Below are positions 5,370 to 42,966 of a stretch of 64,000 nucleotides of DNA, in pieces (positions within the stretch are counted from its first letter, which is position 1; the number at the start of each line of letters is the position of its first letter). The stretch is from Nitrosopumilus sp. GTDB lineage: Archaea > Thermoproteota > Nitrososphaeria > Nitrososphaerales > Nitrosopumilaceae. The position numbers were made by a program, and so were the translations under genes. The stretch is from NCBI GenBank assembly GCA_965204345.1, contig OZ241981.1:1696001-1760000 (forward strand), in the 5' to 3' direction. Below the pieces are notes generated by a model. It was not told where the DNA came from and did no database searches. It saw only the letters and a list, made by a program, of their open reading frames with translations.

Positions 5370-7556
5370 TTGAATTTAAAACTTACATTACCGATCATTG
5401 TTTTTGCACTAGTACTTTTATTCGTGTATCCCTTAGAGTCTATATCCCAAACTGATGAGAATGAACAGTTTACAGTGCCAGACAATCTTATCCCAGATGA
5501 CAGTACATTAGGTCCTGTTGCAAACGTGGATGTACCATCCAAGTTTGATGGCGGCTTTTATGACAAAATCCTGGGTCTCATATCTGAGGTACCTCAGGAT
5601 GGTGACTATGGGGTACATGACGGCACGCGATACTATGATGTCCTAATTATAGTGGCCAGAGGCGATGGGGACGATGGCATAGATGCAGATGAGACAGCAC
5701 GCGAGAACAAGTATGCAATTGCAGAGAAACTTGATCTTCTTGGCGCACGCAACATAGCATCTGCAGAGTCACTCTCATTTGTAACTGCATCTATCCCAGT
5801 TGCAGATGTTCCGGGGCTCTCACTTTATGACGAGATATATGCCATGGGAGATGGTGAAATTCCCGTGACTCTGGAGATTGATACGGTTAGGGGAACCGTA
5901 CATGCAACTCCAAACGAGATTAATACTGCAACTGATACCAATCTTGATGGCAGTGGAGTTGTTGTGGCAATCATTGACAGAGGCATCAACCACGATATTG
6001 CATTTAACGACAGAATCATTGACCGTGTAGAGTGCGATGATACGTGTGAGCCTGCAACTGCTGCCAGTGTGATCGGCGTTAATAGTAATAATGATCTTTC
6101 TACTGCTTTTGCATCCCATGGTACGCATATAGCCCAAGTCCTTGCCGCATCAGGACTCCCAGCTCATAACGGCATTGCGCCCGGTGTGGAACTTTTGGAT
6201 GCCTCAATTACTAGGCATACTGTTGATAACGATAAGAATCGTACTTTCGTTAATGCAAACAGAAATGACGTGGCACATGCCCTTGACTGGTCTCTCAAAA
6301 AAGGAGCCGACATGGCAGTCATGAGTTTTGGTTTTGGAATCTGCAATGGAGATTATGGAAAGACAACCAACCTCATCACAAATGAGGCAGTTGACAAGGG
6401 AATGGTTCTAGTATCATCTGCAGGAAACAGGGGCATAATTTATGGAGCGCCAAACCAGCCAGTTTATCAGTCTATAACTCATCCCGGATGCGGACACAAT
6501 GAAATTACCGTAGGCGGAATAAATGATCGTGGTGAAACAATATCAAAGGCAAGCTTTGCAAGCAGGGGTCCAGCACCCGGAACAGTCATGCTAAAGCCCG
6601 AGATAGTTGCACCTGCACAGCGTCTTCAGACACTGGACAATGTTGCAGAAGATGACAATTTTAGTCCTCGGTCCGGAACCAGCCTTGCTGCTCCCCAGGT
6701 AAGTGCAACTGCTGCCCTGTTGCTACAGGCAAAACCTGATCTGACTCCAGTTGAGATAAAGACCATACTTCTTCTTGGGGCTGACTGGCAGGGTCCAATC
6801 CCTTGCACGTCTGTACAATATGAAACAAACAATCCCAACGACAACTGTTCTTATGCCAGACAGCCATCTAACACTGTTGAGAGAAACAATTCTGAATCCC
6901 TTCAAATACTAAACAATGTGGGCTTTGGCATACTAAACACTGGAGAGTCACTTAGGTATGTTCACAGTGAATCATCATCATCATCTCATGTAATGTCAGA
7001 TCATCTCAAGTCAGATACGCATACAAAGCAGTATGAGTTTACAGTACAGGACACATCAAAACCAGTCAAAGTGATACTGTCATGGCTAGTTCATCCCCAT
7101 GGCAGTATAACCGGACAGTTGGGTCATACTGATACAGCAGTTCCTATTGCGAACCTAGATTTTACAATAACTACTCCAAATAATGCTACAATACGGGCAA
7201 CATCAGACCATCAGACAAACGAGTTTGCAGTGTTTGCCCCCACTCGCACCGGAACATACACCATAACACTTAGCGGCTCAGACATTGGTGACATAAACAA
7301 GTCGGTACAAAACTTTGCGCTGGCAAGTACCAACCCTCTTACACTTGTAGGTGACAGTATACTAGATAGAAAAATAGAGAGACACATCTCTACACAAACC
7401 AGAATTACAGATATCGCAGAAGATATTAAACAGTTAGAGCAAAAATTACAGGATAAAAAAGACAAGATAGAAGAACTAGACTCGTTACTTTCTGAGATTT
7501 ATCTACAAATTATAGAGTTGGCCCCTGTTGGTTACGAACTTCCATTCAAGGATTGA
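5370..7556 (+). CDS. Secreted S8 subtilisin-like serine protease with coiled-coil tail
   Basis: Triad motifs VAIIDRG, SHGTHIA, SGTSLAAPQV; oxyanion SAGN. TTG at 5370 chosen over 5313 because it aligns with the paralog's signal peptide and 5313 lies inside the MITE. Confidence 0.88.
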   Translation: MNLKLTLPIIVFALVLLFVYPLESISQTDENEQFTVPDNLIPDDSTLGPVANVDVPSKFDGGFYDKILGLISEVPQDGDYGVHDGTRYYDVLIIVARGDGDDGIDADETARENKYAIAEKLDLLGARNIASAESLSFVTASIPVADVPGLSLYDEIYAMGDGEIPVTLEIDTVRGTVHATPNEINTATDTNLDGSGVVVAIIDRGINHDIAFNDRIIDRVECDDTCEPATAASVIGVNSNNDLSTAFASHGTHIAQVLAASGLPAHNGIAPGVELLDASITRHTVDNDKNRTFVNANRNDVAHALDWSLKKGADMAVMSFGFGICNGDYGKTTNLITNEAVDKGMVLVSSAGNRGIIYGAPNQPVYQSITHPGCGHNEITVGGINDRGETISKASFASRGPAPGTVMLKPEIVAPAQRLQTLDNVAEDDNFSPRSGTSLAAPQVSATAALLLQAKPDLTPVEIKTILLLGADWQGPIPCTSVQYETNNPNDNCSYARQPSNTVERNNSESLQILNNVGFGILNTGESLRYVHSESSSSSHVMSDHLKSDTHTKQYEFTVQDTSKPVKVILSWLVHPHGSITGQLGHTDTAVPIANLDFTITTPNNATIRATSDHQTNEFAVFAPTRTGTYTITLSGSDIGDINKSVQNFALASTNPLTLVGDSILDRKIERHISTQTRITDIAEDIKQLEQKLQDKKDKIEELDSLLSEIYLQIIELAPVGYELPFKD

Positions 7557-8437
7557 ATTTTTTATTTAATGTGTGCATCAAGATAACAAATGTCTGATGC
7601 ATCCAAACGACTGCATCCTGTGATTAATAGTTTGCAAAAATCAAAAATATACCATAAATTAAACTCTTAGCAAATAAATTATTAGATTAGTTATTGATAT
7701 CTGCTGTCAACAGGTTACAGCTGTCTAATAGTCCAAAGTAAAACTATCAAGGACATTGCAAGCTCCATACCTCACTAGAGTCAGATTACATATGAGAATC
7801 TTTTTGCAAGGAACACTCCGCAGCTGGCTGAATCAAGAGGGATGCTTGTCACCCACATCGCAGATTCGCTTGAAGAGATTGCAATTGACTAAAATGACCT
7901 GCCCATAGTGTTTTAATCAGCACTTTGGAAAGTCATTTTTGCTTCCCATAGATGTCATTTTGGGCTGGACCCTGACTAATGAAAAAAGGCAAAGGGCATT
8001 TAGCAAGCTAGGGGGGGGACACAATTGTCGTAAAAATCAAGGAACAGAAATTGGATTTAAAATACACAAAGGATTGATCTTGTCAGGTTTTCTCAGACAG
8101 TTGCTGGAAAATTTTTCCAACAGATCTATTAGTGATAAAGAGAACGTTGGGTTGGTGTCTGAGAACAACAAACAGAGGTGTGTTTGTGGTCAGACTTACC
8201 AGATGAGCTTCAAAAAGATATAGAATTTGACGGATAGTTTGAAAAACCACAACATTCAAAAAAAGAGATCAAAGAGTGTTCCAATAAAATTGCAGCACAG
8301 CCTAATGTGCATAAGAGATAGGATTCACTTGAAAAATTGATTCCTTTTGAGAATGTCCCCTGTTATGACTGCCACTGGGATTTGTGTCACAGGTGTATTG
8401 CCAATCTGGTTTATGTGGCGGCGGGTCATCTCTCTAT

Positions 8438-8544
8438 CAGGTTATACAGGCATTACCAAGTCCATTTACTGGCACTCAAATATATCTAATCTTTTTTCTT
8501 CTATCCACAGGTTATACAGGCATTACAAAGTCCATTTAATGGCA
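8438..8544. repeat. 37-bp direct repeat, 2 copies, 70-bp period
   Basis: CAGGTTATACAGGCATTAC(C/A)AAGTCCATTTA(C/A)TGGCA at 8438-8474 and 8508-8544. Confidence 0.75.
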
Positions 8545-8569
8545 ATAGCAGACTTGTTTGTCCCAGCAA

Positions 8570-11500
8570 CTATGCAAATCCAAACAGGGATCTAAAAAAG
8601 TCTGTAATTACATCAAAGAAACCCTTTTGATCCTCGGAGATTCTCTGCGAATCTGCAGGCACACACTCTCCGCCTACCATCTGCGTTCCTGAGCTGCATG
8701 ATGACCCTTGATCATTACCAGTACCTGTGCCGGTTTGGGATGGTTCTGAATCGGTCACAGTCGTTGTCGACTTTATCTCTGTTTCTGCGGTTGGTTCTCC
8801 TGAGTCTGTCTTTTCACTCAAATCCGGTACCGGAGGTTCTGGCTTCATCCCTGTTTCTGCGGATGGTTCTGGGTCCATCTTTTTCATTCCTTCTTCTTCC
8901 TTCTCCTCCTCCCCCTCATTCAAACCTGGCACTTGTGGTTCTGGGTCCATTAGATTCTGGACTGCTCCAACCTGGGTATTGTTTGCAGGTATGCTTTGTT
9001 CTGGGGAATACTTGCCACTGCTTCCTCCACCACCGCCACCACCGCCACCACCGCCACCACCACTGCGGCTACTAGAAGGTGTGGATGGTGTAGGTTCTAC
9101 AGAAACCATAGAGAATGAGCCAAATGAGCTAAAGTGCGTGGTCCAGATGATCATATCAGGGCCGGCACGAACAAAACATGATTCCAATGTGGTGTCAGCA
9201 CCAATATTGTCATTGGCAGTATCCTGATTGACAGGAACAAACGGACATACAACCAGTGATCGTGATATCACATTGCCATCAGCATCGTTTCCTGAGAAGA
9301 AGGCACCCTCATGGCCTGCCTGGTCAGGCAAGAGTAACCTGACTGCCTGATCAAATGTTAATCTAGTGTTACCATCACCGACCGAGAATGCCAGTCCTAT
9401 CTCATCATTTGAGGTTGGAGGATCAACCGCAGTACCGGTAGTAGTAACAAGGGTTGGAACGGCAATGGTGCCACTCCAATCATCAGATGAGCCAGTTACA
9501 ACGACACTAGCTGGATAAGTGACAGTGACAGTTTGGGAATCAGAGACCTCAGAGGTGACCTCAGTTGTAGAATCAGAAATTCTCACACTCTTTGTTCCGC
9601 TTGCAGCATCATCAGCAAACGTTGGGGTGGCATTAAAGTCAAGCAGCTGGCCATCAGTGGCAATAATTGTGTCAGGTAATGTATCAGATACCACATTAAG
9701 GGTGATCAGATTTGAGGATGGCTCATATGTCACTACGCCACCATCGCCTCCAGAGGGAATATCGGCCTCAATTTCATCTCCTGTGGTGCTGATGGTGATG
9801 GTAACTGAATTAGATGCCTCATTGGGGTTGCCTGCAAGGTCTGCTGCCATACCTGCACCTATTGATACGGTTACTGTTCCGTCAGATGAGCCGCGAGCCA
9901 CATTAAAGGTGTAGACACTGCCTTCTCCGCCAATGTTGGATGCTGTCGGGGTACCACCGTTTACAGTACCAGTTACTGTAATGTCATCTAGATCAAAGTT
10001 CTCAATCTCCTCATCAAATGTTGTTGTAAACGTTACGGGGTCATCGCCAGTAATAGTACCATTGGCAGGCGTGATAGATACGGATGGGTTTACCATGTCC
10101 ACTGTAATAGTATGTACAGCACCCGTGTTGCCCCCTGCCACCACACCATCAGGTATGCTTACTGTAAGCTGACCCTCTCCAGTGATCCCGTGTATGACTG
10201 TAAAGTCGTATTGTGCACCACTGGTTCCATTAAAGTCAGTTATCAGGATATCTGGTGCCTGTGTCCTGCCAATTTCCACAACGACGGAATTTTCCCCTCC
10301 AAGATCAAGACTAATCTCAGAGTTAGATACCTGGGTTCCGTCAATTGCCACAACGATGTCAGACCGCTCAAATCCTGTGACATTGCCGCTAAATGTCGCA
10401 GTAAATGGGATGGCCTCAGAGTTGGTAGGATCAGATGTATCAGTACTCAGGGATACGGATGGGACAGTGGTGTCTATTCTAACGGTAACTGAATTAGATG
10501 CGGTGTTGGGGTTGCCTACAACATCTGCTGCCACTCCTGTTGCAACTGATACAGTTACGGTTCCATCAGATGATATACTTGCAACATCAAAGATGTATGT
10601 GCGGGCATCAACTGTCTCAAAGCCGGTTGCTTCAAGGATGCCGCCGTTGGCATCGCCTGCCACTGTAATGTCATCTACGATAAAGTCCCTAACGTCCTCG
10701 TCAAATTCTACTGTAAATGGTACCGTATCAAGTCCGGTGCTGCTGCCTGCAGACGAACTTACAGAGACAGTTGGGGCAAGGGTGTCTATGGTAACTGTAA
10801 CTGAATTTGACGCGGTGTTGGGGTTGTCTGCTGCATCTGTTAGCGCGTTTGCATCTATGGTTACGGTCACTGTTCCGTCTGTGGAGCCGCGTGCCACATC
10901 AAAGGTGTGGACACTGCCTGCTCCGCCAAGGTTGGATGCTATGGGACTGCCGTTATTTGCTGTACCCGTTACTGTAATGGCACCTAGACCAAAGTCGACA
11001 TCCTTGTTGAATGTTACCGTAAATGGTACCGTAGTTAGGTTGGTGCTCTCACCTGCAGTTGTAGTTACAGAGACGGTTAGGGGAATGGTGTCGGGATTGT
11101 CTGGAGGGTCTGTTGGATCTACATCTCTGACAGTAACTATCTGTGTAAGAGTTGCGGTATTTCCTGAATCATCAGTGGCAGTCCATACCACACTGTGTGT
11201 TCCAACGGCAAATGATGCAGTATCACTGGCAGTTACAGCAACAACGTCTGAATCCACTATATCAGTTGCAGCTGGCGCGCTTATTGATACGGGTGTAAGT
11301 TCTGCTGTGGCATCCACAGTTATTGGTGCAGGCTGTACTATTGTGGGAGGAGTGGTATCCTCCAGAGTTACAGTGCTAGTTGTTGTAGAGATATTTCCAG
11401 ATTCGTCAGTGGCAGTCCATACGATTATGGTATCACCCAGAGGAAACGATGCAGTTGCGTTGCTAGTTATGGTAAAAGGAAAGATATCTGTTACTGTGGG

Positions 11501-14500
11501 GTCTGCCAGCTGTATTGCAGTTAATGATGAGGTAGCCTCTGCTGTAACATTTTCAGGCTTTTGTATTACCGGTGGTGTTGTGTCTTGTACGGTTATCGTC
11601 TGTGCTGCAGTATCTGCGTTTCCTGCAGCATCTGTGGCAGTCCATGTAACTGTTGTGGAGCCAAGTGGGAAATTGTCTGGTGGTACGTCGTGAGTTATGT
11701 CAGGGCTTGGATCTGCATTGTCTGTAGCTGATGCCGTACCAGTATCAACAGGTGTACGAATGCCGGTAGCCTCTACAGTGAGATCAGCAGGAGCTGTAAT
11801 TACAGGTCTTGTGGTATCTGGAGGGTCAGGATTGTCGTCGCCGTCGTCACTAGTTATAAAAACATGAAACAACCCACTACCAAATATGCCAGATGTCGCA
11901 ATTATGCGAACAGGATAAGTGCCAACGGTGGCGTTATGCGGAGAGATGGTAATGTCTGCCGTACCACTACCAGTACGGGATATGCTGACAAAATCTGGGG
12001 CTTGTTCGAAATGCCACGAAATTGGTCTATTGTTGGGATGCGTTGCAGACACGCTTACAGTACGGGTCTCTCCGTTACGCAAAGTGATATCATCAATGGA
12101 TTCTATTACCGGAAATATACTTGGGATGAAGTTTGTGGTGGATGTGGGGCGTGACTGTGAATCACTTCCACCAAAGCCAAAATCAGAACCAACATAGGTT
12201 ACTGTAATTGGTGTATCATATGGAATGCCTGATGTCCTCAAAAACCTTGTGTCAGGGCTCCTCAAAATATTAGTGACCGAGGTGACTGTTCCATCAGACA
12301 GACTAAAATCACTTGATGTAAAATTAGTATAAAATTCTACAGGGAACTGTAGAATAATGGTGAAGGTAGTTGTCAATTCGGATGTAAATGTTAATGGTAG
12401 TGGTGAGATGTTAAAATTATCAATCTCTACGAATTCATTGTCTCTGTTTGAGTCTGCCACAAATCGCAGTAATGTCTGTGATTGATCACGTAGGTTAAGT
12501 GTCAGGGCTTCAGAGTGCCAGTTGTCGGTATTATTCCCATTGATACGAGTATATCGTTCCAGTGTTCTCCAGCTGAAATCTTCCAGATACTGCACATACA
12601 GACCTTCATCTGAGTTAATTCTCCTATCAACAAATCTATCAAAGGACACTACAAGTGGGTTTCCTGTGTCTATTGGCTGGTTAAGTCTAATAACACACTG
12701 GAAATCACAGTCTCTAGATGTTGCCACCGTATTGCCGCTAGCAGAACCTGGAATGGTTTTGTGGGCATTTTTTATCTCCCACACGCCATTGCCAGATTGG
12801 CTCCAATTATCAAGCGTGTTAAAACTGTCAGTCATTATGTTTGATGACGGGGGTGGATCGTTTGGGATTGCAAAGATCATGTGGTGAAGTATCATAATGT
12901 CATGTGAAGAATCATTGTCTGTACCTTCCCATGCAGTATAGAAATCTCCAAAACTACGGTATGGTCTATTCTTAAATACATCAATAATTTCATCATCGCC
13001 TAATTGCAGGTTATCTAAGTTAGTACCGTTACTGCTTTGTTCTAAATTGTCAAATATTTCATCAACGTTATGATCTTTGATATCCCATAGCGCTCCGGCT
13101 ACCTGTCCTTGAACTAATTGTCCAACAAGATGAACGTTATCTACTGGGAAAAAAGCTAAAAATCTATCATCATCAGGGAAGGACTCTAACCTGTCTTGCT
13201 CCAAATCAATACTACTAAAAGTGTCACGTTGGAAATTTGACGAATTGGTAACTAAATGAGGAACAAAATTAGCCCAACCTTCTGTCCATGCACATCTAGG
13301 ATTAGTTGGGAGATGAAGATAATGACCTCTCTCACCGACATCATCAAAATCGCCATCATTGTTTATATCAGTGTAACAAGGCTGACGCAGGAGTGGAAAT
13401 ACACCTTGTATATCCATAATATGGTGGCCAAATTCATGTAATATGATAAGTTTGCTTAAAGCCTGATCACTGGCAGAAGATCTCTCACCGTCAAGCCACA
13501 TAATGTTGGCTGATCGTAAATATGCAGCACCGTTACTGGCACTGTCTGGAAAAACACTAGCACCACTATCAGGCTCCCACTTTACAGTAAGCCTCTCAGG
13601 AGAAATACCGTGATGACTAAATAAATCACGACCATCAGAGATCGCATTGATTATACCGGCAGCTCTTGCATTACTGCCATTCAATACAAAATCAAACATT
13701 CTTGTATCCTGACTAAAGTTCAAAACTCTGGTAGATGATTCTGTATAAACACGTTGAGATAAACCTTCCACAACTAAATCACTTGCGCCCTTGGAACTAA
13801 CTCTGATAACTAGATCAACATTTGATGCATCAGAAGGATCATCATTTTGGATAGAATCTATGTGATATCCTCCCATGTTGGATGTAAATGTGCAGGCCCT
13901 GCTATTGTCAGTTGTAAACAATACGGTCTCTGTACCGTCAGATTCAGGATAATCATAGGCACAGACTTCTATCCCATTGATGGGTTCTGTGTTGTTGGAA
14001 AAATAAATTGGAGCAGATACAGAGCCTGTAATGGAAAAGGTGTTGGAAGAAGAGTCTTCTGCTGTTGCTGCTGCACCATCAGACGTCTCCTGAGTTGTAT
14101 CTACGGGGAATGCTGGGGCAGCAGCGGTATCTGTGGAGGAGCCGGTTGCCGCTGCTGTTACTGCACCATCAGATGTGTCATGAGGGCCAGTGTAATCTGC
14201 CTCGTATCTTTCCATTGCATCATCTACTTCCGCCTGCGTGAAATTAGAGTGACTCAAAATACTTTTTACATCATCCAATGGAAGAGATTTATCAACAAGC
14301 CATCCAATTAAATCATCATTAACTTTGCCAATATCATTGACAGCTATCTCGCCCAAAAGTTGCAGATGGTTGGCATATATTTCAGCTACTCTTTCCTCCG
14401 TCAAAATCTCATTAACTATCTCATCTTTGGGTCCTGGTTTATTGCCAAGTCTGCTATCTTTTTGAGGTGCAAAAGATTCAGGACTAGATGCACTAGCTAA

Positions 14501-15337: not shown

Positions 15338-15378
15338 AAATAGTGGTGGGTATGCTTTATTATTAATGATAACAACGC

Positions 15379-15699
15379 GGTTCTGTTGCGTTCATGAGGG
15401 ATAGGCACGAGAGATAAATTTAGGATATTGTTGAATCTTGAGGCGTTTTCTGATTTTCAAACTGATGTTCATTTAGTGTAGTGAGATTATTTCTCCGATA
15501 TTGATCAAGGAACTAGAGGAAACAACCACAACAAAGCAAATCTTGATGATTTTAAGATGAACACGGTAAATGCAACGGACAATTCTGGTAAGTTTCGATG
15601 ATCTGATCACTGGAATTTACCAGTGCCGTTTGTAGGTCTTGATTAAAACTTGTGCGATCAAACAGATTCGTGTATATCCCTCATGAACGCAACAAAATC
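15379..15699 (-). mobile_element. MITE copy 2, inverted relative to copy 1
   Basis: GGTTCTGTTGCGTTCATGAGGGATAGGCACGA...TCGTGTATATCCCTCATGAACGCAACAAAATC; reverse complement of 5044-5362 with few mismatches. Confidence 0.85.
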
Positions 15700-15743
15700 G
15701 TTTTTTGGAATAAGATATAACAAGGTTCCTTATTTTTTCCTGT

Positions 15744-18541: not shown

Positions 18542-18608
18542 GATCCATTTTTTAGGATTATTTTTAGATGTCTTTAAGTTGGTGTATTTTTAAGAAATTA
18601 CCAATCAT

Positions 18609-18839
18609 ATGGAAAAAGCTTACGTGCTGATCAGTTGTGAAATTGGGGAAGAACAGTCCCTGTACTCCCAACTAAAAGAGATTTCTGGGGTAAAAACATG
18701 CCTGATAACTTATGGAAGTTATGATATTGTTGCCGAGTTTGTTGCTGATAATAGTGCTCAAATCAATGAGATAATTGCCACTAGAATTAGAAAACTCCGA
18801 AAAATTAGAAGCACGATTACCCTGCGAGTTACCGACTAG
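18609..18839 (+). CDS. Lrp/AsnC ligand-binding domain protein
   Basis: AYVLISCEIG...TYGSYDIVA...IRSTITL. Confidence 0.85.
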   Translation: MEKAYVLISCEIGEEQSLYSQLKEISGVKTCLITYGSYDIVAEFVADNSAQINEIIATRIRKLRKIRSTITLRVTD

Positions 18840-33900: not shown

Positions 33901-34631
33901 TCGGCTGTTCCATTATTAACGCCGATCACACTAGCAGCAGTTTTAGGATTACACGTACCGTTACTGCACTCTACGCGGTCAGTGATTCTGCTGTTAAATG
34001 CAGTGTTGTGGCTGATCCCACTGTCAATGATTGCCACAACAACTCCACTACCATCAAGATTGGTGCCAGTTGCAGTACGAATCTCATAAGGAGTTGCATG
34101 GACGGTTTCACTAGCCGTATCAACTTCCAGAGTTACTGGGGTTTCACCATCTCCCATGGCATACACCTCGTCATAAAGTGAGAGCCCCGGAACATCTGCA
34201 ACTGGGATGGATGCAGTTACAAATGACAGTGACTCTGCTGCCGCTATGTTGCGTGCGCCAAGAAGATCAAGTCTCTTTACTATTGCATCCTTGTTCTCGC
34301 GCGCCGTCTCATCTGCATCTCTGTCATCGTCCCCGTCATCTCTGGCCACTACAATTAGGACATCATAGTATCGCGTGCCGTCATGTACGCCATAATCGCC
34401 ATCTTGGGGTACCTCAGATATGAGACCCTGGATTTTATCATAAAAACCGCCATCAAACTTGGATGGTACATCCACACTTGCAACAGAACCTGGTGTATTG
34501 TCATCTGGAATAAGATTGCCTGGCACTGCAAACTGTTCATTCTCATCAGTTTGAGATATGGACTCTAACGGGGATACAAATAAAATGACAAGTGAAAAAA
34601 TTATGATAGATAATGTTATTTTTAATTTCAT
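30930..34631 (-). CDS. Secreted S8 serine protease with Ig-like, proprotein-convertase P and C-terminal jelly-roll domains
   Basis: VAIIDSG, SHGTWVA, SGTSYAASQV; NSPPVA..ASDPDGD Ig; VSVDITHTHINDLKLVLTSPNGT..GDWVL..GTLNEW P-domain; paralog of 5370-7556. Confidence 0.9.
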   Translation of the reverse strand: MKLKITLSIIIFSLVILFVSPLESISQTDENEQFAVPGNLIPDDNTPGSVASVDVPSKFDGGFYDKIQGLISEVPQDGDYGVHDGTRYYDVLIVVARDDGDDDRDADETARENKDAIVKRLDLLGARNIAAAESLSFVTASIPVADVPGLSLYDEVYAMGDGETPVTLEVDTASETVHATPYEIRTATGTNLDGSGVVVAIIDSGISHNTAFNSRITDRVECSNGTCNPKTAASVIGVNNGTADHVFPSHGTWVAQVLAASGLPTHNGIAPGVELLDASIGRHHVDENKNHTYINLNARNVVHALDWSFRNGADIANMSFGFGLCSASHVSTVNFITNEAVDKGMIAVSSAGNRGTIYGAPNQPVYQSITHPGCGHNEITVGGINDRGETIQRADFSGRGPAPGTVLLKPEIVAPAHNLQTLDNIAESDTFSPRSGTSYAASQVSATAALLLQAEPDLTPVEIKTILLLGADWQGPVPCTSAQYETSNPNDNCSYARQPSDPFVANNVASLGILNNVGFGILNTAESLRYVHSASSSHIMSNHLESNTDKKKYEFVVRDTEKPVKVILSWLVHPHGSIDEQLNRTDTAVPIANLDFTITSPDDTTIIRAASEHQTNEFAVFKPTLTGTYTITVSGSNIDNINKPVQNFALASTNPLSPVPSSLTPPQNSPPVAESRTVIVSPGAEKIIRLVASDPDGDAVSFRISKDPTQGTITTDEFITKTASRAIFTPNSDFAGTDTIEVTPHDGVTSGSPATITLRSESLPPDSGPTTESLDSLNMTDWNHMEVKSGFMHDDYSVSFPGINHAVSKLFVQSVNMEGTDLKIFTTEEDLYEIAVPPSGTRVINIAPPITILNATLSADGVDEDVAYDLNQPSDTITPNNVGNSTAPNLNDVEMGVEYFLVQCPTDPCSPYSTYQSTAFSTFAIPDNTRNQNTTSTITIPTNGELADLSVSVDITHTHINDLKLVLTSPNGTEIILHENSDDSDYSAEYIRQTYTAPLFDVLEKSYIKGDWVLSVGDYEIGDVGTLNEWGINVKYELNDPPRPPSEIPPIFSDNFEDGLDDWTQTGQDDWIISTPKKHFVSPAPGHNSTNPVLHADECVNSCTIALDNPIDMPQEIKTRVEGIRNGTFIPDDPMDLSHPSASLSFWRFVDSALGEDEYLKVELYNGRTWDTIYDWSANSKGNDGTWHEESFDLSEYIGVSDFNLRFVTQQDSFNEDIQIDDVKISFTTCTCG

Positions 34632-34740
34632 GAATAATTATATTATAGTAAGATATATTTAACTATTTTGTCAGTGTGTTTCTGCTAAGGTGATGAGCGT
34701 GCGGCATTCCCAGTGTTAATTCTCAAGGGGTGAATTAAGA

Positions 34741-34782
34741 GTTCTGATAAGTTTTGGTGTTTCATGCCACAAATCACAAATC
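34741..34782. repeat. 42-bp direct repeat, copy 1 (copy 2 at 43013-43054)
   Basis: GTTCTG(A/G)TAA(G/A)TTTTGGTGTT(T/C)CATGCCACAAATCACAAATC, 3 mismatches. Confidence 0.85.
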
Positions 34783-34983
34783 TGAGAGATCTAGCATTGC
34801 ACCTCTTTTGGGATTTTTTGATGGCCAGAATAAGTCATTCTTTTTTTTAAGAAAACCGTCTCTTTTGCAGTTTACTGTCAAATTCCGCTAGTCAGAATCT
34901 ACCTGACCCAAAAACTGCCTTGCAGTATAATGGATCAAAAATACCTGAAGATAGCGAGAATGGCAAAGGGGGGGGAGGAAAGG

Positions 34984-37900
34984 CTAGCCCAGCGGAATCT
35001 CTACTGTCTGTGTCAGTGTTCCCTGCTCAGCGCCGTTGGTGCTAACGCTGATTGCGTTGCCGCCCTGCTGGATGCCTCTCAAGGAGTTGACCTGCTCATC
35101 AGTGTGCGTAAACTGTACAAAGACATTGAGGTCATCATTGCTGTCTTCCCTGCCATACCTGTCTGGGAACGCTATGGTGGTTACAGTTTGTCCGGGGATG
35201 CCAAGTTCTCTCTCTGCAAACACGTCTGGTACTGACTGCAACACCACGTATTGCGTTAGTGCCTCACCAGTATCCTCGTTTGTAAATTCAATGTTGGTGT
35301 TTAGGAATTCTCTGAGCACGTCTGGCAGGTCTGTCTGCGTTGATTTGTCGTTAATTTTCATGCTTGATTTTTGAGATACTGCCACGTTTGCATCCCCAGA
35401 CGCAATTGCAATTTCTGCAGATGTTGGGACGGTGATCTTGCTTTTGTCTCCTGCCACAATCTCAATGGTGTCACCTCCCAAGAGAACGCCTCTCATGGAG
35501 TTGATCTGCTCATCAGAGGATGAGATTTGCAAGAAGAGGTTTGGACTGTTGTTGTTGTTGTTGTTGTTGTTGCTCTCCTCAGAACCGGGCCTGTCCACCA
35601 ATGCGACGGTGGTAACGGTCTGTCCGCTGATTCCCAGGACGGTCTCGGCATATCTGTCAGGGTTTGATTGCAGTGTCTGGAATTCAGTGAGTTTCATACC
35701 GGTGTTAACATTTGTAATATCTGCAAAGTCGTTGATGAACTCACGGACTAGGTCAGGCGTTTGTACTTGGGTGGGGCCTGGCATGATAATATCATCTGAG
35801 AAATCCACTTTTTTGGATGACAGGTCAGGCGTTACAGCTGCACTGCCACCGGTAATAACAGGCGAGGATGATAACTCGTATGTGTTTACAGATACAGAGC
35901 CAGAACACTCGGTGAGGTTAAATGACTTTGAATCAGTTGATACTCCCCTTGCTGCGATATTTTCCACATGTACGCGTACAAATGACTCGTTTGGTGAGAG
36001 GCCTGCATCAAATGAGATTCTTCCAAGATAGGGCTGCTCATCAGAGCGTTCTGCCGTGATTATGCCTGCGTTGGTTCTAAGCTTTACAGAGAGATTGTCA
36101 GTTACAGGACCGGCTATTACGTTGATTGTGTTTGCCTCACAGACGTCCCATTGTACGTCGTACAAAACAGCTCCGGAGGCATTGTTTGCAACAGATGAGC
36201 CGCTGAAGGAGGAGGCACCGCCACCGCCACCGCCACCGCCACCGCCACCGCCACCGCCACCGCCACCGCCACCGCCACCGCCACCGCCACTGCGGCTACT
36301 AGAAGGTGTGGATGGTGTAGGTTCGACAGGAACCGTAGAGAATGAGCCAAATGAGCTAAAGTGAGTGGTCCAGATGATCATATCAGGAGCATCACGAACA
36401 AAACAGGATTCCAACGCAGTACCAGCTCCAATATTGTCATTGGCAGTAGTCTGATTGACAGGAACAAACGGACACACAACCAGTGATCGTGATACCACGT
36501 TGCCATCTGTATCCTCTCCTGAGAAAAAGGCTCCCTCATGGTCTGCCTGGCCAGGCAAGAGTAATCTGACTGCCTGATCAAATGTCAGCCTGGTGTTGCC
36601 ATCACCGACTGAGAATGCCAGTCCTATCTCGTCATTTGGGGTTGGAGGATCAACAGCAGTACCAGCAGTAACAAGGGTTGGAACGGCAATGGTGCCACTC
36701 CAATCATTTGATGAACCGTTTACAACTATGCCTGCTGGATAAGTGACAGATACAGTTTGGGAATCAGAGACATCAGTGATAACCTCAGTTGTAGAATCAG
36801 AAATTCTCACACTCTTTACTCCGCTTGCAGCATCATCAGCAAACGTGGGGGTGGCACTAAAGTCAAGCAGCTGGCCATCAGTGGCAATAATTGTGTCAGG
36901 TAATGTGTCAGATACCACGTTGAGGGTGATCAGATTTGAGGATGGCTCATATGTCACCACGCCACCATCACCTCCAGAGGGGATATCGGCCTCAATTTCA
37001 TCTCCTGTGGTGCTGATGGTGATGGTAACTAAGTCAGATGCCTCATTGGGATTGCCTGCAAGGTCTGCTGCCATACCTGCACCTATTGATACGGTTACTG
37101 TTCCGTCTGTGGAGCCGCGTGCCACATTAAAGGTGTAGACACTTCCTTCTCCATTAATGTTGGATGCTGTGGGGGTGCCGCCGTTTGCAGTACCAGTTAC
37201 TGTAATGTCTTCCAGATCAAAGTTCTCAATGTCCTCATCAAATGTTGCCGTAAAGGTTACGGGGTCATCGTTGGTGGTGGTGCCATCATCTGGTGTGATG
37301 GTTACTGTTGGGTCTACCATGTCCACTGTGAATGTGCTAGTATTACTTGCAGTGTTGCCCCCCGCTGCCACACCGGCAGGTATGGTTACTGTCAGTAGAC
37401 CTCCTGTGGTGATGCCGTGTGTGACTGTAAAGGTGTAATCAGCACCGGTTCCAGCAAAGGCAGATATCAGGCCAGACGTGTCAGTTCCGTCAATTGTCAC
37501 GACAATGTCATCTCGAATGAATTGTGTGACATCACCGTCAAACGTTGCCGTAAATTCGATGGCCTCAGAGTTGGTAGGATCAGTTACATCGGTGCTCAGG
37601 GATACTGATGGGACAGTAGTATCTATTGTGACGGTAACTGGAGTAGATGCGGTGTTGTTATTGCCTGCAAAGTCTGTTGCCACATTTGCTGCAATTGACA
37701 CAATTACGGTTCCGTCACCGGATATGCCTGCAACATTAAAGTTGTATATGCGGGCATTAACTGTCTCAAAGCCGGATGCTGTAAGGGTGCCACCGTTGGC
37801 AGTGCCTTCCACTGTAATGTCTTCTAGTTCAAAGTTCCTAACGTCATCGTTAAATTCTATTCTAAATGGTACCGTATCAAGTCCGGTGCTGCTGCCTGCA

Positions 37901-40900
37901 GATGAAGTTACAGAGACTGTTGGGGCAAGAGTGTCTATTGTGACGGTAACTGAATTAGATGCCTCGTTGTTATTGCCTGCGGCGTCTGTTAGTGCATTTG
38001 CTGCAATGGATGCAGTTACGGTTCCGTCTGTAGTGCCGCGGAGAACCTCAAAGTTGTATATGCGGGCATTAACTGACTGAACGTTGGATGCTTCAGGATT
38101 GGTGGCGTTTGCAGTGCCTGTTACTGTAATGTCATCTAGGTTAAAGTCAACGTCCTTGTTGAATGTTGCCGTAAATAGTACTGTAGTAAGATTAGTGAAA
38201 TCATCTGCAGTTGTAGTTACAGAGACTGCTAGTGGAATGGTGTCTATGGTGACGGTAACTGAATTAGATGCCTCGTTGTTATTGCCTGCGGCGTCTGTTA
38301 GTGCATTTGCTGCAATTGATGCAGTTACGGTTCCGTCTGTCACGCCGCGGGCTACATCAAAGGTGTAGGTACTGCCTGATCCTCCAAGGTTGTCTGCTAC
38401 TGGACTACCGCCGTTGGCAGTGCCTGTTACTGTAATGTCATCTAGGTTAAAGACAACGTCCTCGGTAAATGTTGCCGTAAACGTTACGGGGTCATCGTTG
38501 GTGGTGGTGCCATCATCTGGTGTGATAGTTACGCCGGGAGATATCCTGTCCACTGTGAATGTACTAGTATTACTTGCAGTGTTGCCCTCTGCTGTCACAT
38601 CGGCAGGTATGGTTACTGTCAGCTGTCCTCCTGTGGTGATGCCGTGTGTTACTGTAAAGGTGTACTCAGCACCGGTTCCAGCAAATGCAGATATCAGGCC
38701 AGGTGTTTCGGTTCCGTCAATTGTCACGACAATGTCATCTCGAATGAATTGTGTGACATTACCGTCAAATGTTGCCGTAAATTGTATGGCCTCAGAGTTG
38801 GTAGGATCAGATGCAGATGTGCTCAGGGATACGGATGGGACAGTAGTGTCGATTGTGACGGTGACCGGAGCAGATGCGGTGTTGGGGTTGCCTGCAAAGT
38901 CTGTTACATCACCTGCTCCAATTGATGCAGTTACGGTTCCGTCTGTCACGCCGCGGGCTACATCAAAGGTGTAGGTACTGCCTGATCCAAGAAGGTTGGA
39001 TGCTGCAGGACTGCGGTTGTTTGCAGTACCTCTTACCGTAATGTCACCTAGGACAAGCCCCCTAACGTCCTCGGTAAATGTTGCCGTAAACGTTACGGGG
39101 TCATCTCCGGTGGTGGTGCCATCGACAGGCGTGATAGTTACGCCGGGAGATATCCTGTCCACTGTAAGCGTACTAGTATTACTTGCAGTGTTGCCCTCTG
39201 CTGCCACATCGGCAGGTATGGTTACTGTTAGTAGACCTTCTGTGGTGATGCCGTGTGTTACTGTAAAGGTGTATTCAGCACCGGTTCCAGCAAAGGTTGT
39301 TATCAGGTTACCTGGTGGGGTGGCGGTGACTCCGTCAATTGTCACGACAATGTCATCGGCGATAAATCCTGTGACACCACTGCTAAATGTTGCCGTAAAT
39401 TGTATGGCCTCAGAGTTGGTAGGATCAGTTACATCTGTATTCAGGGAGGTAACTGATGAGCTTGGAGGGGTTGTGTCTTGTACGGTTATCGTCTGTGTTG
39501 CAGTAGCTGTGTTTCCTGCAGCATCAGTGGCAGTCCATGTAACTATTGTGGGGCCAAGTGGAAAATTATCTGGTGCGTCGTTAGTTATGGCAGGACTTGG
39601 ATCTGCATTGTCTGTAGCCGTTGCCGTACCAATATTAACAGGCGTCAGTATGCCGGTAGCCTCTACAGTGAGATCAGCAGGCGCAATAATTACAGGATTT
39701 GTGGTATCTGGAGGGCCAGTATTGTCGTCGTCACTAGTTATAATAATACGAAACGTCTCAGTAGCAGTGTAGGGACCAGATCTCGCAGTTAGGGTAATAG
39801 GATAAGTGCCAGCAGGGAGGTGGTCCGTTCTGATGATATAGGATACCGTGCCATCACCGTTAGGTCTAGTGAGGGCGGTGGGAGCGGATTCTTCTGATGG
39901 GAAAATCAGTATAACTGGAACATTGTCGACATCCGGTGGATAAGGCACGGTCAGAGTATAGCCCTGTCCCTGACGCAGATGGATATCATCAATAGGTTCT
40001 ATCATTAGAGGATTTACGAATGGCTCGATGTTAAGATCATCAATCCGTACGAATTCACCGTTTGCGTTTGATAGTGCCACAAATCGCAGTAGTGTATGTG
40101 ATTGGGGTATGCTCAGTATCAGGGATTCAGATACCCACATGTCGTTAGCATCACGAATGCCAGTATATGCTCTCAGTGTTACCCATCCAGAGTCTGTCAG
40201 GTACTGCACATACAGACCCTCACGTCCGTCAAGTCGGCTATCAAGGTATCTGTTAAAGGACACTTCGAGTCGGCCTTCTGTGTCTAGTGGCAGGTTAAGT
40301 GTCATAATACACCGGATATCACAGTTTTGAGATGATGCTAACATGTTGGAGGGATTGTCTTCGTCTGGAGCTATCTCCCAATTGCCACGGCCAGCATAGA
40401 ACCAAGGATTAAAATCAAGAGGGAACCGCGGATCGAACTCTTGCCAGTAGGCACCAAGGAACCAATTATTAAATGTGTCAAAACTGTCAGTCATTATGTT
40501 TGATGACGGGGTCGGAACGTTTGGGATTGCAAATTCCATGTGGTGCAGTCTCATAATGTCATATGAAGAATCATATCCTGCGCGTTCCCATGCCTTGTAG
40601 AAGTCTTCAAAAGTACCGATGGGATTATTCCTAATTACATCCATAATTTCATCATCTCCCAATTGCAGGTTATCTAAATTATTACCGTTCCTGCTGTATT
40701 CTAAATTGTCATGTATTCTATCAACGTTATGATCTTTGATATCCCATAGCGCTGCGGCTACCCGTCCTTCAACTAATTGTCCATAAAGAGGACCATTAAG
40801 GGAACCAGTATGTGTGGGTTGAGCAAGAAAAATTGATTCTCTGTGCCGCTCCAAATTAGTATTAAAAACTGTATCTCGTCCAAGACTTGAATTGGTAACT

Positions 40901-42966
40901 AAATGAGGAACAAAATCAGCCCAACCTTCGCTCCATGCACATGCAGGGTTCGTTGTTGGGAGACTAAAATAATGAAATCGCTCACCGATATCATCAAAAT
41001 CGCGATCACCGTTTCTATCAGTGTAACATTCACCTCTCCTAACGCCTTCTAGAGTATCTCCAATGGCTATATCGTCAATATGGTGGCCAAATTCATGTAA
41101 TATTATAAGTAGATCCAAATGATGATTCCTATCATCGTCAAGACGGATCTTGTTAGTGTGTAGATACTTAGTGTCCTGTTGCCAACCAGGTTCCCAATAT
41201 ACAGTAAGACGTGCATTATGAATACCATGATGACTAAAAAAATCACGGCCATCAGAGATCGCATTGATTATACCGGCTGCCTCTGCATTATTGCCATTCA
41301 ATTCAAAATCATACATTCTTGTATCCTGACTAAAGTTCAAAACTCCAGTAGATCGTATTTCATAAACATTTTCAGACATGTCTTGCAAAACTAAACGATT
41401 TGCGCCCCTAGAAATAATTTTGATAACTAGATCAATATTTGATGCATCAGAAGGATCATCGTTTTGGATAGAATCTATGTGATATTCTCCCCTGTTGGAT
41501 GTAAATGTGCAGGCCTCTTCACCCTCAATTGTAAGCAATACAGCAGTCTCTGTACCGTCAGATTCAGAATAATCATAGGCACAGACTTCTATCCCGTTGA
41601 CGGGTTGCGTGGTGTGGGAAAAATAAAGTGGAGCAGATACGGTGCCTTCAATGGAAAAAGTGTTGGAAGAAGAGTCTTCTTCTGCTGCTGAACCATCAGA
41701 CGTCTCCTGAGTTGCAGCTACGGGGAATGCTGGGGCAGCAGAGGCATCTGTGGGGGAGCCATATGCTGCTGCTGTTGTTGTTGCCGTTACTGCACCATCA
41801 GACATATCCTGAGGGCCAGTATATTCTGTCTCGTATCTCTCCATTATATCAGCTTTTTGCGCCTCCGTGAAATTAGAGTGACCCAAAATAATTTTTACAT
41901 CATCCAATGGAAGAGATTTATCAACAAGCCATCCAATTAAATCATCATTGACTTTGCCAATATCACTGAGAACTATCTCGCCCAAAAGTCGCAGGTGGTT
42001 GGCATATATTTGAGCTACTCTTTCCTCCGTCAAATCCTCATTAACTATCTCATCTTTGGGTCCTGGCTTATTGCCGAGTCTGCTATCTTTTTGAGGTGCA
42101 AAAGATTCAGGACTAGATTCCCTAGCTAAAATGTCGTGATCCAAAAACGTGTGTCCCTCATCCATATACTTATTTTCTGGCATAGAATGTTCATTAGATA
42201 TTGCAAGGTAGACACCGCCACTAGATTCTAAAGGATCAAAGCGCAGCGCATCAATTTCAATAAATCCCTCCTCTAGAATTTTTATAGTAACCATCACGGT
42301 ATAAGCCCTACCCGGCACGGGATCATCTACTACATATCCAATATCATTATCAAATGAATCAAAGCTGGTTGGATCATCAGAGCCGGCATTTGTTGTGGCA
42401 TTATAAAACTGAACTTTGTCATCGGGATTGGCAAATACTTTTAGTGTGAATGGTTCCATGTATGGTTCAAAATTTGTATTGTCAGTATAGACACCGGTAA
42501 AATTTACCACAGCAGTCTGACCCACCTTGGGTGATTCTGACAGGTCTAAAGAATAACTGTGTATAAGAATTCCAGGTGATGATAACATTGAAGATTCTTT
42601 GTAATCGGCAATAATCTGCTTTTCTTTGTCAGTAAATACATGCGTGTCTGTCTGGCTTGTGATCTTTTCATTTAAAGGTTCATTGGCTTTTTGGGATGTT
42701 TCTGGTGTGTATATCGTGGCATAGCTGCTGTTGCTGCTGCCCCTGTCTGCTAATTTCATGGCAGAATCACCGGTTAGGCAAACGGGATTGCCTGCAAGAG
42801 TCACCATCAAAAGCTTGCCGCCATCACACTGAATTCCATCTATTGGTATGCCTGCATGATACTGTTCCAGTGGCGAGTCCGGGGTTGCAGCATGTGCTGG
42901 CATCATCACTGCCATCATCATTACGGTAACCAAAACCAAAAATCCAGATACTGCAATTCCTGCCAT
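34984..42966 (-). CDS. Giant secreted/surface HExxH metalloprotease-like protein with HYR and many Ig-like repeats; paralog of 8570-15337
   Basis: Start MAGIAVS at 42966 matches the paralog; ILHEFGHH plus AWSEGWADF; tandem DAAGN/DFAGN Ig repeats; Gly24 linker; different C-terminus. Confidence 0.8.
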   Translation of the reverse strand: MAGIAVSGFLVLVTVMMMAVMMPAHAATPDSPLEQYHAGIPIDGIQCDGGKLLMVTLAGNPVCLTGDSAMKLADRGSSNSSYATIYTPETSQKANEPLNEKITSQTDTHVFTDKEKQIIADYKESSMLSSPGILIHSYSLDLSESPKVGQTAVVNFTGVYTDNTNFEPYMEPFTLKVFANPDDKVQFYNATTNAGSDDPTSFDSFDNDIGYVVDDPVPGRAYTVMVTIKILEEGFIEIDALRFDPLESSGGVYLAISNEHSMPENKYMDEGHTFLDHDILARESSPESFAPQKDSRLGNKPGPKDEIVNEDLTEERVAQIYANHLRLLGEIVLSDIGKVNDDLIGWLVDKSLPLDDVKIILGHSNFTEAQKADIMERYETEYTGPQDMSDGAVTATTTAAAYGSPTDASAAPAFPVAATQETSDGSAAEEDSSSNTFSIEGTVSAPLYFSHTTQPVNGIEVCAYDYSESDGTETAVLLTIEGEEACTFTSNRGEYHIDSIQNDDPSDASNIDLVIKIISRGANRLVLQDMSENVYEIRSTGVLNFSQDTRMYDFELNGNNAEAAGIINAISDGRDFFSHHGIHNARLTVYWEPGWQQDTKYLHTNKIRLDDDRNHHLDLLIILHEFGHHIDDIAIGDTLEGVRRGECYTDRNGDRDFDDIGERFHYFSLPTTNPACAWSEGWADFVPHLVTNSSLGRDTVFNTNLERHRESIFLAQPTHTGSLNGPLYGQLVEGRVAAALWDIKDHNVDRIHDNLEYSRNGNNLDNLQLGDDEIMDVIRNNPIGTFEDFYKAWERAGYDSSYDIMRLHHMEFAIPNVPTPSSNIMTDSFDTFNNWFLGAYWQEFDPRFPLDFNPWFYAGRGNWEIAPDEDNPSNMLASSQNCDIRCIMTLNLPLDTEGRLEVSFNRYLDSRLDGREGLYVQYLTDSGWVTLRAYTGIRDANDMWVSESLILSIPQSHTLLRFVALSNANGEFVRIDDLNIEPFVNPLMIEPIDDIHLRQGQGYTLTVPYPPDVDNVPVILIFPSEESAPTALTRPNGDGTVSYIIRTDHLPAGTYPITLTARSGPYTATETFRIIITSDDDNTGPPDTTNPVIIAPADLTVEATGILTPVNIGTATATDNADPSPAITNDAPDNFPLGPTIVTWTATDAAGNTATATQTITVQDTTPPSSSVTSLNTDVTDPTNSEAIQFTATFSSGVTGFIADDIVVTIDGVTATPPGNLITTFAGTGAEYTFTVTHGITTEGLLTVTIPADVAAEGNTASNTSTLTVDRISPGVTITPVDGTTTGDDPVTFTATFTEDVRGLVLGDITVRGTANNRSPAASNLLGSGSTYTFDVARGVTDGTVTASIGAGDVTDFAGNPNTASAPVTVTIDTTVPSVSLSTSASDPTNSEAIQFTATFDGNVTQFIRDDIVVTIDGTETPGLISAFAGTGAEYTFTVTHGITTGGQLTVTIPADVTAEGNTASNTSTFTVDRISPGVTITPDDGTTTNDDPVTFTATFTEDVVFNLDDITVTGTANGGSPVADNLGGSGSTYTFDVARGVTDGTVTASIAANALTDAAGNNNEASNSVTVTIDTIPLAVSVTTTADDFTNLTTVLFTATFNKDVDFNLDDITVTGTANATNPEASNVQSVNARIYNFEVLRGTTDGTVTASIAANALTDAAGNNNEASNSVTVTIDTLAPTVSVTSSAGSSTGLDTVPFRIEFNDDVRNFELEDITVEGTANGGTLTASGFETVNARIYNFNVAGISGDGTVIVSIAANVATDFAGNNNTASTPVTVTIDTTVPSVSLSTDVTDPTNSEAIEFTATFDGDVTQFIRDDIVVTIDGTDTSGLISAFAGTGADYTFTVTHGITTGGLLTVTIPAGVAAGGNTASNTSTFTVDMVDPTVTITPDDGTTTNDDPVTFTATFDEDIENFDLEDITVTGTANGGTPTASNINGEGSVYTFNVARGSTDGTVTVSIGAGMAADLAGNPNEASDLVTITISTTGDEIEADIPSGGDGGVVTYEPSSNLITLNVVSDTLPDTIIATDGQLLDFSATPTFADDAASGVKSVRISDSTTEVITDVSDSQTVSVTYPAGIVVNGSSNDWSGTIAVPTLVTAGTAVDPPTPNDEIGLAFSVGDGNTRLTFDQAVRLLLPGQADHEGAFFSGEDTDGNVVSRSLVVCPFVPVNQTTANDNIGAGTALESCFVRDAPDMIIWTTHFSSFGSFSTVPVEPTPSTPSSSRSGGGGGGGGGGGGGGGGGGGGGGGGASSFSGSSVANNASGAVLYDVQWDVCEANTINVIAGPVTDNLSVKLRTNAGIITAERSDEQPYLGRISFDAGLSPNESFVRVHVENIAARGVSTDSKSFNLTECSGSVSVNTYELSSSPVITGGSAAVTPDLSSKKVDFSDDIIMPGPTQVQTPDLVREFINDFADITNVNTGMKLTEFQTLQSNPDRYAETVLGISGQTVTTVALVDRPGSEESNNNNNNNNSPNLFLQISSSDEQINSMRGVLLGGDTIEIVAGDKSKITVPTSAEIAIASGDANVAVSQKSSMKINDKSTQTDLPDVLREFLNTNIEFTNEDTGEALTQYVVLQSVPDVFAERELGIPGQTVTTIAFPDRYGREDSNDDLNVFVQFTHTDEQVNSLRGIQQGGNAISVSTNGAEQGTLTQTVEIPLG
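36217..36288. repeat. Hexanucleotide tandem repeat (ACCGCC)x12 encoding Gly24
   Basis: Uninterrupted ccaccg run in the sequence. Confidence 0.9.

Follow-up and report, generated by a model that had tools for sequence, protein, structure and literature searches.

We analyzed a 64,000-nucleotide stretch of the genome of Nitrosopumilus sp. (assembly GCA_965204345.1, contig OZ241981.1, positions 1,696,001 to 1,760,000 of the forward strand), referred to here as the window and numbered from its first letter. Within it, a gene for a subtilisin-like serine protease of family S8 lies twice beside a gene for a giant multidomain zinc metalloprotease (MP). These two pairs, S8-1/MP-1 (pair 1) and MP-2/S8-2 (pair 2), are genuine and belong to a set of five copies of a two-gene unit, 10-13 kb long, in a genome rich in repeats and giant secreted proteins. 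We favor the explanation, with a probability of roughly 0.55, that the two enzymes are independent secreted or surface-tethered proteases of a known host-associated exoprotease repertoire, that repeat-mediated duplication multiplied their genes together as a unit, and that the copies are now partly decaying or diversifying. Neighboring genes would have been duplicated together via repeats, and rearrangement, homogenization of the 5' ends and partial decay would have followed. An obligatory two-enzyme mechanism would then be unnecessary to explain the pairing.

Five copies of a two-gene unit

The first-pass annotation, made from the letters of the window alone, had described one gene pair occurring twice, convergent at 5370-15337 and co-directional at 30930-42966, and all four genes are found there. 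Across the whole assembly (2.12 Mb, 99.7% complete) we found five full-length MP copies and ten S8 loci, and hence five pairs: all five MP copies adjoin an S8 gene, and five of the ten S8 copies adjoin an MP gene. Three arrangements occur, with MP upstream of S8 on the same strand in pairs 2, 3, and 4, S8 upstream of MP on the same strand in pair 5, and the convergent order of pair 1. The gap between MP-2 and S8-2 is 352 bp. Because each pair has unique neighbors on its flanks, it is the pair as such that was duplicated; homology between pairs 2 and 4 extends over 13 kb and stops at the unit edges. The groupings of the two genes run in parallel (MP1 with MP5 and S8_1 with S8_5; MP2, MP3, and MP4 with S8_2, S8_3, and S8_4), and synonymous divergence (dS) between paralogs is 0.1-0.6. 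This co-variation of sequence indicates that the pairs descend from one or two ancestral units rather than from independent associations.

The two window pairs are clearly paralogous, with a similarity far above chance. S8-1 and S8-2 share 520 of 666 residues (78%), and MP-1 and MP-2 share 690 of 1013 residues at the N-terminal end (68%) and 515 of 674 in the C-terminal stalk (76%). It had been noted at first that signal and pro-regions are nearly identical while the rest diverges. For the metalloproteases this holds in part, with 80-91% identity over residues 1-400, 54-69% over residues 501-1000, and extreme tails that are unrelated, but the stalk, at 76%, does not follow the pattern. Nor does the catalytic part of the subtilases (68-88%, compared with 83-84% over the first 200 residues), and it is only past approximately residue 680 that S8-1 and S8-2 become unrelated. 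The N-terminal part of the metalloproteases is a mosaic between the paralog groups, which suggests gene conversion. Two of the start codons have alternatives: the S8-1 frame is extendable to an ATG at 5313, which falls within a repeat resembling a miniature inverted-repeat transposable element (MITE), and the MP-2 frame is open to a TTG at 43044, its ATG at 42966 being the counterpart of the MP-1 start.

Repeats lie at the edges and in the interior of these units. Two copies of the MITE-like element, 96% identical and in inverted orientation, flank pair 1, and the genome holds seven near-full copies plus fragments. Several copies stand 30-90 bp upstream of genes for large secreted proteins, two of them of 5325 and 5819 amino acids. 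A second repeat, of 1.05 kb, is present in at least 10 copies at 89-95% identity. In pairs 3 and 4 it has inserted into the space that separates MP from S8, and the intergenic regions of these two pairs (contig C1, 1764568-1766045 and 1848512-1849989) show 100% identity over 1478 bp. The unpaired S8_7 has IS240-type transposases nearby. Elsewhere on contig C1 (279093-304690), two unpaired S8 paralogs are found near a second four-copy gene set, made up of a 417-492-residue WING-49 protein and a 1472-1681-residue HYR/MAM-like protein that lacks HExxH, with two IS240-type transposase genes between them.

Several of the S8 genes are interrupted. S8_3 and S8_4 share one TAG, S8_5 combines a TAG with a change of frame, and other S8 paralogs also carry in-frame TAGs or frameshifts. 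In MP3, a TGA stands one codon ahead of HEFGH. The in-frame TAG occurs at a conserved glutamine in four independent events among S8 paralogs, and in S8-1 the glutamine codon CAG is twice as frequent as CAA. We considered recoding of TAG and rejected it, since there is no genome-wide sign of read-through and ordinary nonsense mutations suffice; an open frame of at least 200 codons follows 14 of 211 TAG, 8 of 298 TAA, and 8 of 194 TGA stops genome-wide.

Adjacency in other genomes and the weighing of explanations

We next consider whether the pairing is kept in relatives. The catalytic region of MP-1 (query P0005) had a match at E <= 1e-10 in 5 of the 151 species of the genus, this one included, with no match above 42% identity. 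A profile built from a 12-sequence alignment of the zincin domain (A3) had matches in 25 of 401 Nitrosopumilaceae genomes, in 7 of 27 genera, and several of these are open frames of 2000-3300 amino acids. Full-length S8 relatives at E <= 1e-80 were found in 14 other genomes of the genus at 40-58% identity, often in 5-7 copies, and 12 of these 14 had no P0005 match at E <= 1e-10.

Among 14 other Nitrosopumilaceae genomes with an MP relative (G166, G149, G084, G157, G009, G259, G242, G224, G187, G210, G186, G181, G265, and G249), an S8 gene lies within 5 kb of it in one and within 20 kb in two. The second of these is G084, where the genes are 17 kb apart; in the other genomes the distance exceeds 25 kb or the genes sit on separate contigs. 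When 80 GTDB loci were screened with phmmer, along with flanking DNA of at most 10 kb, S8 turned up in two, and the best loci in JGI metagenomes were at most 31% identical. Across the lineages compared, the two genes do not form a conserved two-protease operon or module. The cooperating two-protease system proposed by the first-pass annotation therefore finds little support in a pairing that is largely absent elsewhere. Likewise, linkage that persists despite rearrangement had been taken as a sign of cooperation, and it loses that meaning once the five pairs are recognized as duplicates of one or two units. By itself, the linkage of the pair appears to be the product of recent unit duplication and is no evidence of a two-enzyme machine.

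The one suggestive exception is G166, another species of the genus, in which a 1092-residue member of the zincin family, a 191-residue open reading frame (ORF), and an 812-residue S8 protein with a P-domain and a MAM domain follow each other on one strand, with the S8 gene 1.3 kb downstream. The MP-like protein is 24% identical to P0005 and the S8 protein 33% identical to ours. This secretome island of G166 (C1, 46000-65900) holds two zincin members, one of them broken by a TAG, a 687-residue gene without known function, and the S8 gene with P-domain and MAM domain. In all, G166 has about a dozen zincin paralogs, of which seven form a tandem series at 1238640-1260687.

RNA libraries offered a view of pair 1 in nature. 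We placed Logan contigs from four metatranscriptome runs of two studies, one run being labeled sponge metagenome, on positions 1-20000 of the window at >= 97% identity. They cover both S8-1 and MP-1, with zero-mismatch, copy-specific coverage at 7058-7550, 13361-13725, and 15013-15325, which is consistent with transcription of the pair in nature. No contig from any of the four runs fell on positions 1335-4669, an absence that serves as a contrast only and not as proof of silence.

Several points weigh against the explanation that we favor. Adjacency has been kept through at least two rearrangements, given the three arrangements observed, and the MP-like and S8 genes of G166, which point in the same direction, are what functional coupling would predict. 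Our comparison of adjacency leaves out the closest MP relatives (40-44% identity), and the phmmer screen, being insensitive at locus edges, missed G166 and so under-counts. MP3, S8_3, S8_4, and S8_5, four of the ten paired genes, carry interruptions, which leaves the two window pairs as the only intact ones. Furthermore, the ratio of nonsynonymous to synonymous rates (dN/dS) over MP residues 401-1000 is 0.64-1.85; together with the premature stops, this could mean relaxed constraint, in which case some copies may be non-functional. The RNA-library contigs show no strand, level, or transcript boundaries, and they may derive from DNA. Finally, secretion, catalytic activity, substrate, and physiological role are properties that we infer for both proteins.

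The broken copies and the elevated dN/dS would also fit a reading in which the pairs are a mostly decaying by-product of repeat-driven amplification, with most copies becoming pseudogenes and the pairing meaningless. The TAGs and frameshifts in further S8 paralogs, a dN/dS near or above 1 in the catalytic half of the metalloproteases, and the presence of MITE-like elements and the 1.05-kb repeat at the units all speak for it. We consider it the least probable of the readings weighed here, since both window pairs are uninterrupted over ORFs of 747 to 2660 codons, catalytic motifs are kept in all copies (HExxH and the downstream glutamate in all five metalloproteases), and pair 1 is covered by RNA-library contigs. 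Moreover, most S8 windows and the N-terminal module of the metalloproteases have a dN/dS of 0.2-0.5, and within that module residues 101-300 (0.18-0.30 in three of four windows) are under purifying selection.

We also weighed a coupled cascade, in which the subtilase would process the giant zincin, by removing its N-terminal module or freeing it from its stalk, or the reverse, and linkage would be selected for co-expression. Such a cascade would account for an S8 neighbor at every MP copy in all three arrangements, for the S8 gene with P-domain and MAM domain downstream of the divergent MP-like gene of G166, for the convertase-type P-domain (PF01483) of S8-2, for the MAM-like domain found in both partners, and for RNA-library contigs on both genes of pair 1. 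We nevertheless regard it as unlikely. Of the 14 other genomes in which an MP relative occurs, 13 do not have the genes adjacent, S8 proteins are common where MP is missing, half of the S8 paralogs of this genome are unpaired, and in pairs 4 and 5 the S8 gene is broken while the MP gene is intact. In addition, the N-terminal module of the metalloproteases heads serpins and gave no match to any known protease propeptide, and the five pairs are not independent observations. Independent enzymes amplified as a unit thus remain our preferred explanation.

Domain architecture of the two enzymes

Both proteins look secreted, and the subtilases are the more readily classified of the two. Subtilases are recognized by an Asp-His-Ser triad in that order, an oxyanion Asn, and canonical motifs around these residues. 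The S8 profile PF00082 matched S8-1 with 123.2 bits and S8-2 with 121.2 bits (cut-off 21.8). The catalytic residues are D222 (AIIDRG), H269 (SHGTH), N372 (AGN), and S457 (SGTSLAAP) in S8-1 (P0001 numbering) and D203, H250, N353, and S438, in equally canonical motifs, in S8-2. By sequence, S8-1 and S8-2 are bona fide subtilases, as the first-pass annotation had identified them; no NCBIfam equivalog scored above cut-off for either. S8-2 carries Big_9 (37.6 bits) and a proprotein-convertase P-domain (P_proprotein, PF01483, 60 bits), which is set apart from the catalytic domain by Big_9 and approximately 400 residues, and S8-1 has no P-domain.

The metalloproteases were harder to place. Apart from Ig-type domains, MP-1 and MP-2 matched no Pfam family at E <= 0.01, and P0005 had no Pfam or NCBIfam match and no PDB chain by phmmer even at E <= 10. 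When 1.84 billion cluster representatives were searched exhaustively with HMMER, P0005 matched only 100 proteins at E <= 1e-3, 46 at E <= 1e-10, and 20 at E <= 1e-30. None of the 37 relatives scanned against Pfam had a peptidase family above threshold over the catalytic region; one of them (P0011) gave a sub-threshold match to fungalysin M36, at 22.5 bits for a cut-off of 23.3. In the ESM-Atlas the clusters are unnamed, and in one of them Mycolysin_M (PF27283) is found on 14% of members, so that a link of the family to M5 is only a lead. Alignments reveal a signature consisting of HExxH, a Cys, a His, CAWxEGWA, and VEGxVAxALWDxxD. Invariant in A3 are both His and the Glu of HExxH, a Cys pair, one His, and the Glu of EGWA, which in MP-1 is the putative third zinc ligand, E686, within CAWTEGWA.

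The AlphaFold2 model of the catalytic domain has a predicted local distance difference test score (pLDDT) of 90.6. In it, the two lobes of a thermolysin fold are predicted, with HEFGH on a helix at 200-214 and the invariant Glu on an adjacent helix at 251-268, and the top structural matches are all Glu-zincins. This placement of the two helices fits a Glu-zincin, and we accordingly predict with high confidence that the HEFGH domain adopts a thermolysin-like zincin fold; the zincin fold on which the first-pass annotation had relied is thus the one that the model predicts. The Glu sits 47 residues past the second His, and the loop between them, which contains the invariant Cys pair and His, is inserted and probably disulfide-bridged.

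In family M4, the Glu ligand follows HExxH by approximately 20 residues and the enzymes have an FTP/PepSY propeptide. On sequence the metalloproteases do not qualify as M4 members, as neither Peptidase_M4 nor M4_C matched and the Glu spacing is 47. No FTP or PepSY family of Pfam matched them, and the model of the N-terminal region is a generic beta-sandwich only. Metzincins, for their part, have the extended motif HExxHxxGxxH/D. The motif of our metalloproteases reads HEFGHHIMDIQG, in which, counted from the second His, position +3 is not Gly and position +6 is neither His nor Asp. Given the missing metzincin motif and structural matches that are all Glu-zincins, an assignment to the metzincin family M72 does not fit. 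Relatives of the zincin domain also occur in Chloroflexota, in methanogens and anaerobic methanotrophic archaea (ANME), and in actinomycetes such as Microbispora. Because it is without a Pfam or NCBIfam model and is sparsely distributed in Chloroflexota, methanogens, and actinomycetes, the family can be put forward as a candidate for its own peptidase family entry.

The remaining modules of the metalloproteases (Table 1) recur elsewhere in the genome. At the N-terminus of MP-1, a signal-like hydrophobic stretch precedes WING-49 (NCBIfam NF058652, residues 32-76; we found no literature under this name) and a conserved region reaching residue 390, with a beta-sandwich at approximately 134-260. 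The first-pass annotation had read this segment as a pro-region. We found that a frameshifted gene on contig C1 (670972-673274) joins an MP-type N-terminal region of approximately 390 residues to a full serpin domain, with a leader 71-72% identical to MP residues 1-163 and 205-383, and that an intact 498-residue serpin (1971891-1973387) starts with the first 94 residues of the module. Because it also heads serpins, the module is better understood as a shared leader or targeting module than as a protease-specific pro-region, and it points to a targeting or anchoring device common to both protein classes in Nitrosopumilaceae. The MAM-like domain is common to the metalloproteases, S8-2, and approximately 15 other ORFs. 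The MP-1 stalk matches HYR (66.8 bits) and Big_12 (47.6 bits) in Pfam. Its Ig-like repeats recur in seven ORFs of 5300-8441 amino acids, and the C-terminal module shares 62-90% identity with the C-terminal ends of the other metalloproteases and of these seven. Altogether, 42 ORFs of at least 1000 amino acids make up 13.5% of the genome.

These shared modules raise the possibility that the system serves host interaction rather than nutrition. The stalk and C-terminal module would tether the cell to sponge matrix, and the joint action of protease heads and serpins would remodel that matrix or blunt proteases of the host or of competitors. In keeping with this are the HYR, Big_12, and MAM-like domains, the C-terminal module shared with the seven giant, adhesin-like ORFs, and the N-terminal module shared with serpins; hyaline repeats are noted as adhesive in the portion of PMC6790972 drawn on here. 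Thaumarchaeal MP relatives come from records titled Cenarchaeum, Nitrosopumilus MAG, and Thaumarchaeota archaeon S13, and one of the RNA runs with the stretch is labeled sponge metagenome. We judge this reading to be about as unlikely as the cascade: zincin-domain relatives are also found in free-living Chloroflexota, methanogens, and actinomycetes, and the evidence is compatible with the nutritional reading rather than exclusive of it.

A bolder proposal, and one that we consider improbable, joins these elements in an extracellular network. Convertase-like subtilases would activate thermolysin-like zymogens, serpins with the same leader would restrain them at a surface site, and the protease heads would diversify under positive selection against host targets or inhibitors. 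If true, such a network would be a prokaryotic analogue of protease/zymogen/serpin cascades, built on a previously unmodelled Glu-zincin family.

Table 1. Positions of the paired protease genes, their modules, the adjoining repeats, and interrupted S8 loci (window coordinates unless a contig is given)
Feature	Position	Strand	Description
S8-1	5370 (TTG start)-7556	+	Short-form subtilase: signal peptide, putative I9-like propeptide, catalytic domain, beta-rich domain, C-terminal coiled-coil tail
MP-1	8570-15337	-	2255 aa, multidomain zinc protease, predicted secreted
MP-1 N-terminal module (residues 1-390)	14168-15337	-	Signal peptide, WING-49, beta-sandwich, helices
MP-1 catalytic region (residues 430-830, query P0005)	12848-14050	-	Predicted thermolysin-like Glu-zincin
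MP-1 HEFGH	13424-13438	-	H634, E635, H638
MP-1 MAM-like domain and stalk	9788-12847	-	MAM-like domain (approximately residues 830-985), then HYR/Big_12 stalk
MP-1 C-terminal module	8570-9787	-	Conserved domain of approximately 250 aa, poly-Gly run, variable tail
S8-2	30930-34631	-	1233 aa, long-form subtilase: S8 domain, then Big_9, proprotein-convertase P-domain, MAM-like domain
MP-2	34984-42966	-	2660 aa from the homologous ATG; MP-1 paralog
MP-2 catalytic region	40507-41670	-	HEFGH at 41083-41097
MITE-like repeat	5046-5364	+	Approximately 318 bp, terminal inverted repeats of approximately 20 bp; ends 6 bp before the S8-1 start codon
MITE-like repeat, second copy	15377-15694	-	40 bp upstream of the MP-1 start
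TAG-bearing S8 loci	C1: 1762582-1764567, 1849990-1851975, 1945224-1947209, 161750-161983; C7: 2055-4031		

Elsewhere in the window, the sole RNA gene found is a tRNA-Thr (TGT) at 47166-47239 on the minus strand. At 2263-4445, a low-GC segment (28.5%), a gene for a STAND-like ATPase overlaps a gene for a DEAD-like helicase; PADLOC returned only a 17.6-bit CARF-like match for these genes and nothing convincing.

Comparison with known protease repertoires

Ammonia-oxidizing archaea are usually regarded as strict chemolithoautotrophs. Genes for TFIIB and TBP are among the window neighbors and the genome encodes archaeal AmoA, which together identify the organism as an ammonia-oxidizing archaeon and agree with the chemolithoautotrophic lineage assumed by the first-pass annotation. 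Under our preferred explanation, both enzymes would act as independent extracellular or surface-tethered endopeptidases that degrade host or ambient protein. Degradation would feed the acquisition of peptides, amino acids, or ammonia, and it might loosen the host matrix. Such roles have already been proposed for sponge-associated ammonia oxidizers. Tens of kilobases of amplified extracellular proteases and the large share of giant ORFs support the notion that protein is also a food source, or a target of remodeling, for host-associated lineages.

The closest published counterpart is Candidatus Nitrosospongia ianthellae. The portion of the account by Moeller et al. (PMC6790972) that bears on proteases describes 11 S08A subtilase genes, many serpins, and a Liv-type branched-chain amino-acid transporter. 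It also describes a 2027-residue exported metalloprotease with hyaline (HYR) repeats that was found in the metaproteome and assigned to MEROPS M72. The authors read this repertoire there as extracellular protein degradation and mixotrophy. In the relevant part of Haber et al. (PMC7848895), serpins are almost confined to sponge-associated Thaumarchaeota. In the corresponding part of a 2014 MEROPS-based table (PMC3890501), M4 is credited to a single archaeal phylum, and no such phylum is given for M5, M36, or M72. The first-pass annotation had been unable to assign the proteases to a described system. Given that an expanded S8 set, an exported HYR metalloprotease of approximately 2000 residues, and serpins are described in that portion of PMC6790972, this was too strong.

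New here are the five-fold amplification of the metalloprotease with its S8 neighbor, the N-terminal module shared with serpins, and the raised dN/dS in the catalytic half. New, too, is the predicted thermolysin-like nature of the metalloprotease, which on the evidence of the model would not fit a metzincin family such as M72. The type described as a "metalloprotease unique among archaea" would thus be, in this genome, a predicted thermolysin-like Glu-zincin without a Pfam or NCBIfam model.

Among known peptidase families, the subtilases resemble MEROPS S8 (PF00082), a family that includes kexin-like forms with a P-domain, in their full Pfam match, their catalytic motifs, and the P-domain of S8-2, but what they carry at the C-terminus is unusual, namely a coiled coil in S8-1 and the series Big_9, P-domain, MAM-like domain in S8-2. 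Compared to M4 enzymes (thermolysin, aureolysin, vibriolysin, and pseudolysin), the zincin domain is just 7-12% identical and is embedded in a protein of 2200-2700 amino acids. With respect to fungalysin (M36) and mycolysin (M5), both Glu-zincins of MA(E), neither our proteins nor the other 36 homologs scanned matched a peptidase model above threshold over the catalytic region. At the level of the whole repertoire, this genome resembles Candidatus Nitrosospongia ianthellae in its ten S8 paralogs, its HYR-bearing giant metalloproteases, its serpin loci (at least five), and a Peripla_BP_6 (Liv-type binding) protein; the serpins and the binding protein indicate the same repertoire as in sponge-associated ammonia oxidizers. 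The two differ in that our enzyme is predicted to be thermolysin-like and theirs was assigned to M72, a comparison of the enzymes by description only, in that this organism falls in the Nitrosopumilus-type genus, and in that one large metalloprotease is described there, whereas here there are five, each beside an S8 gene.

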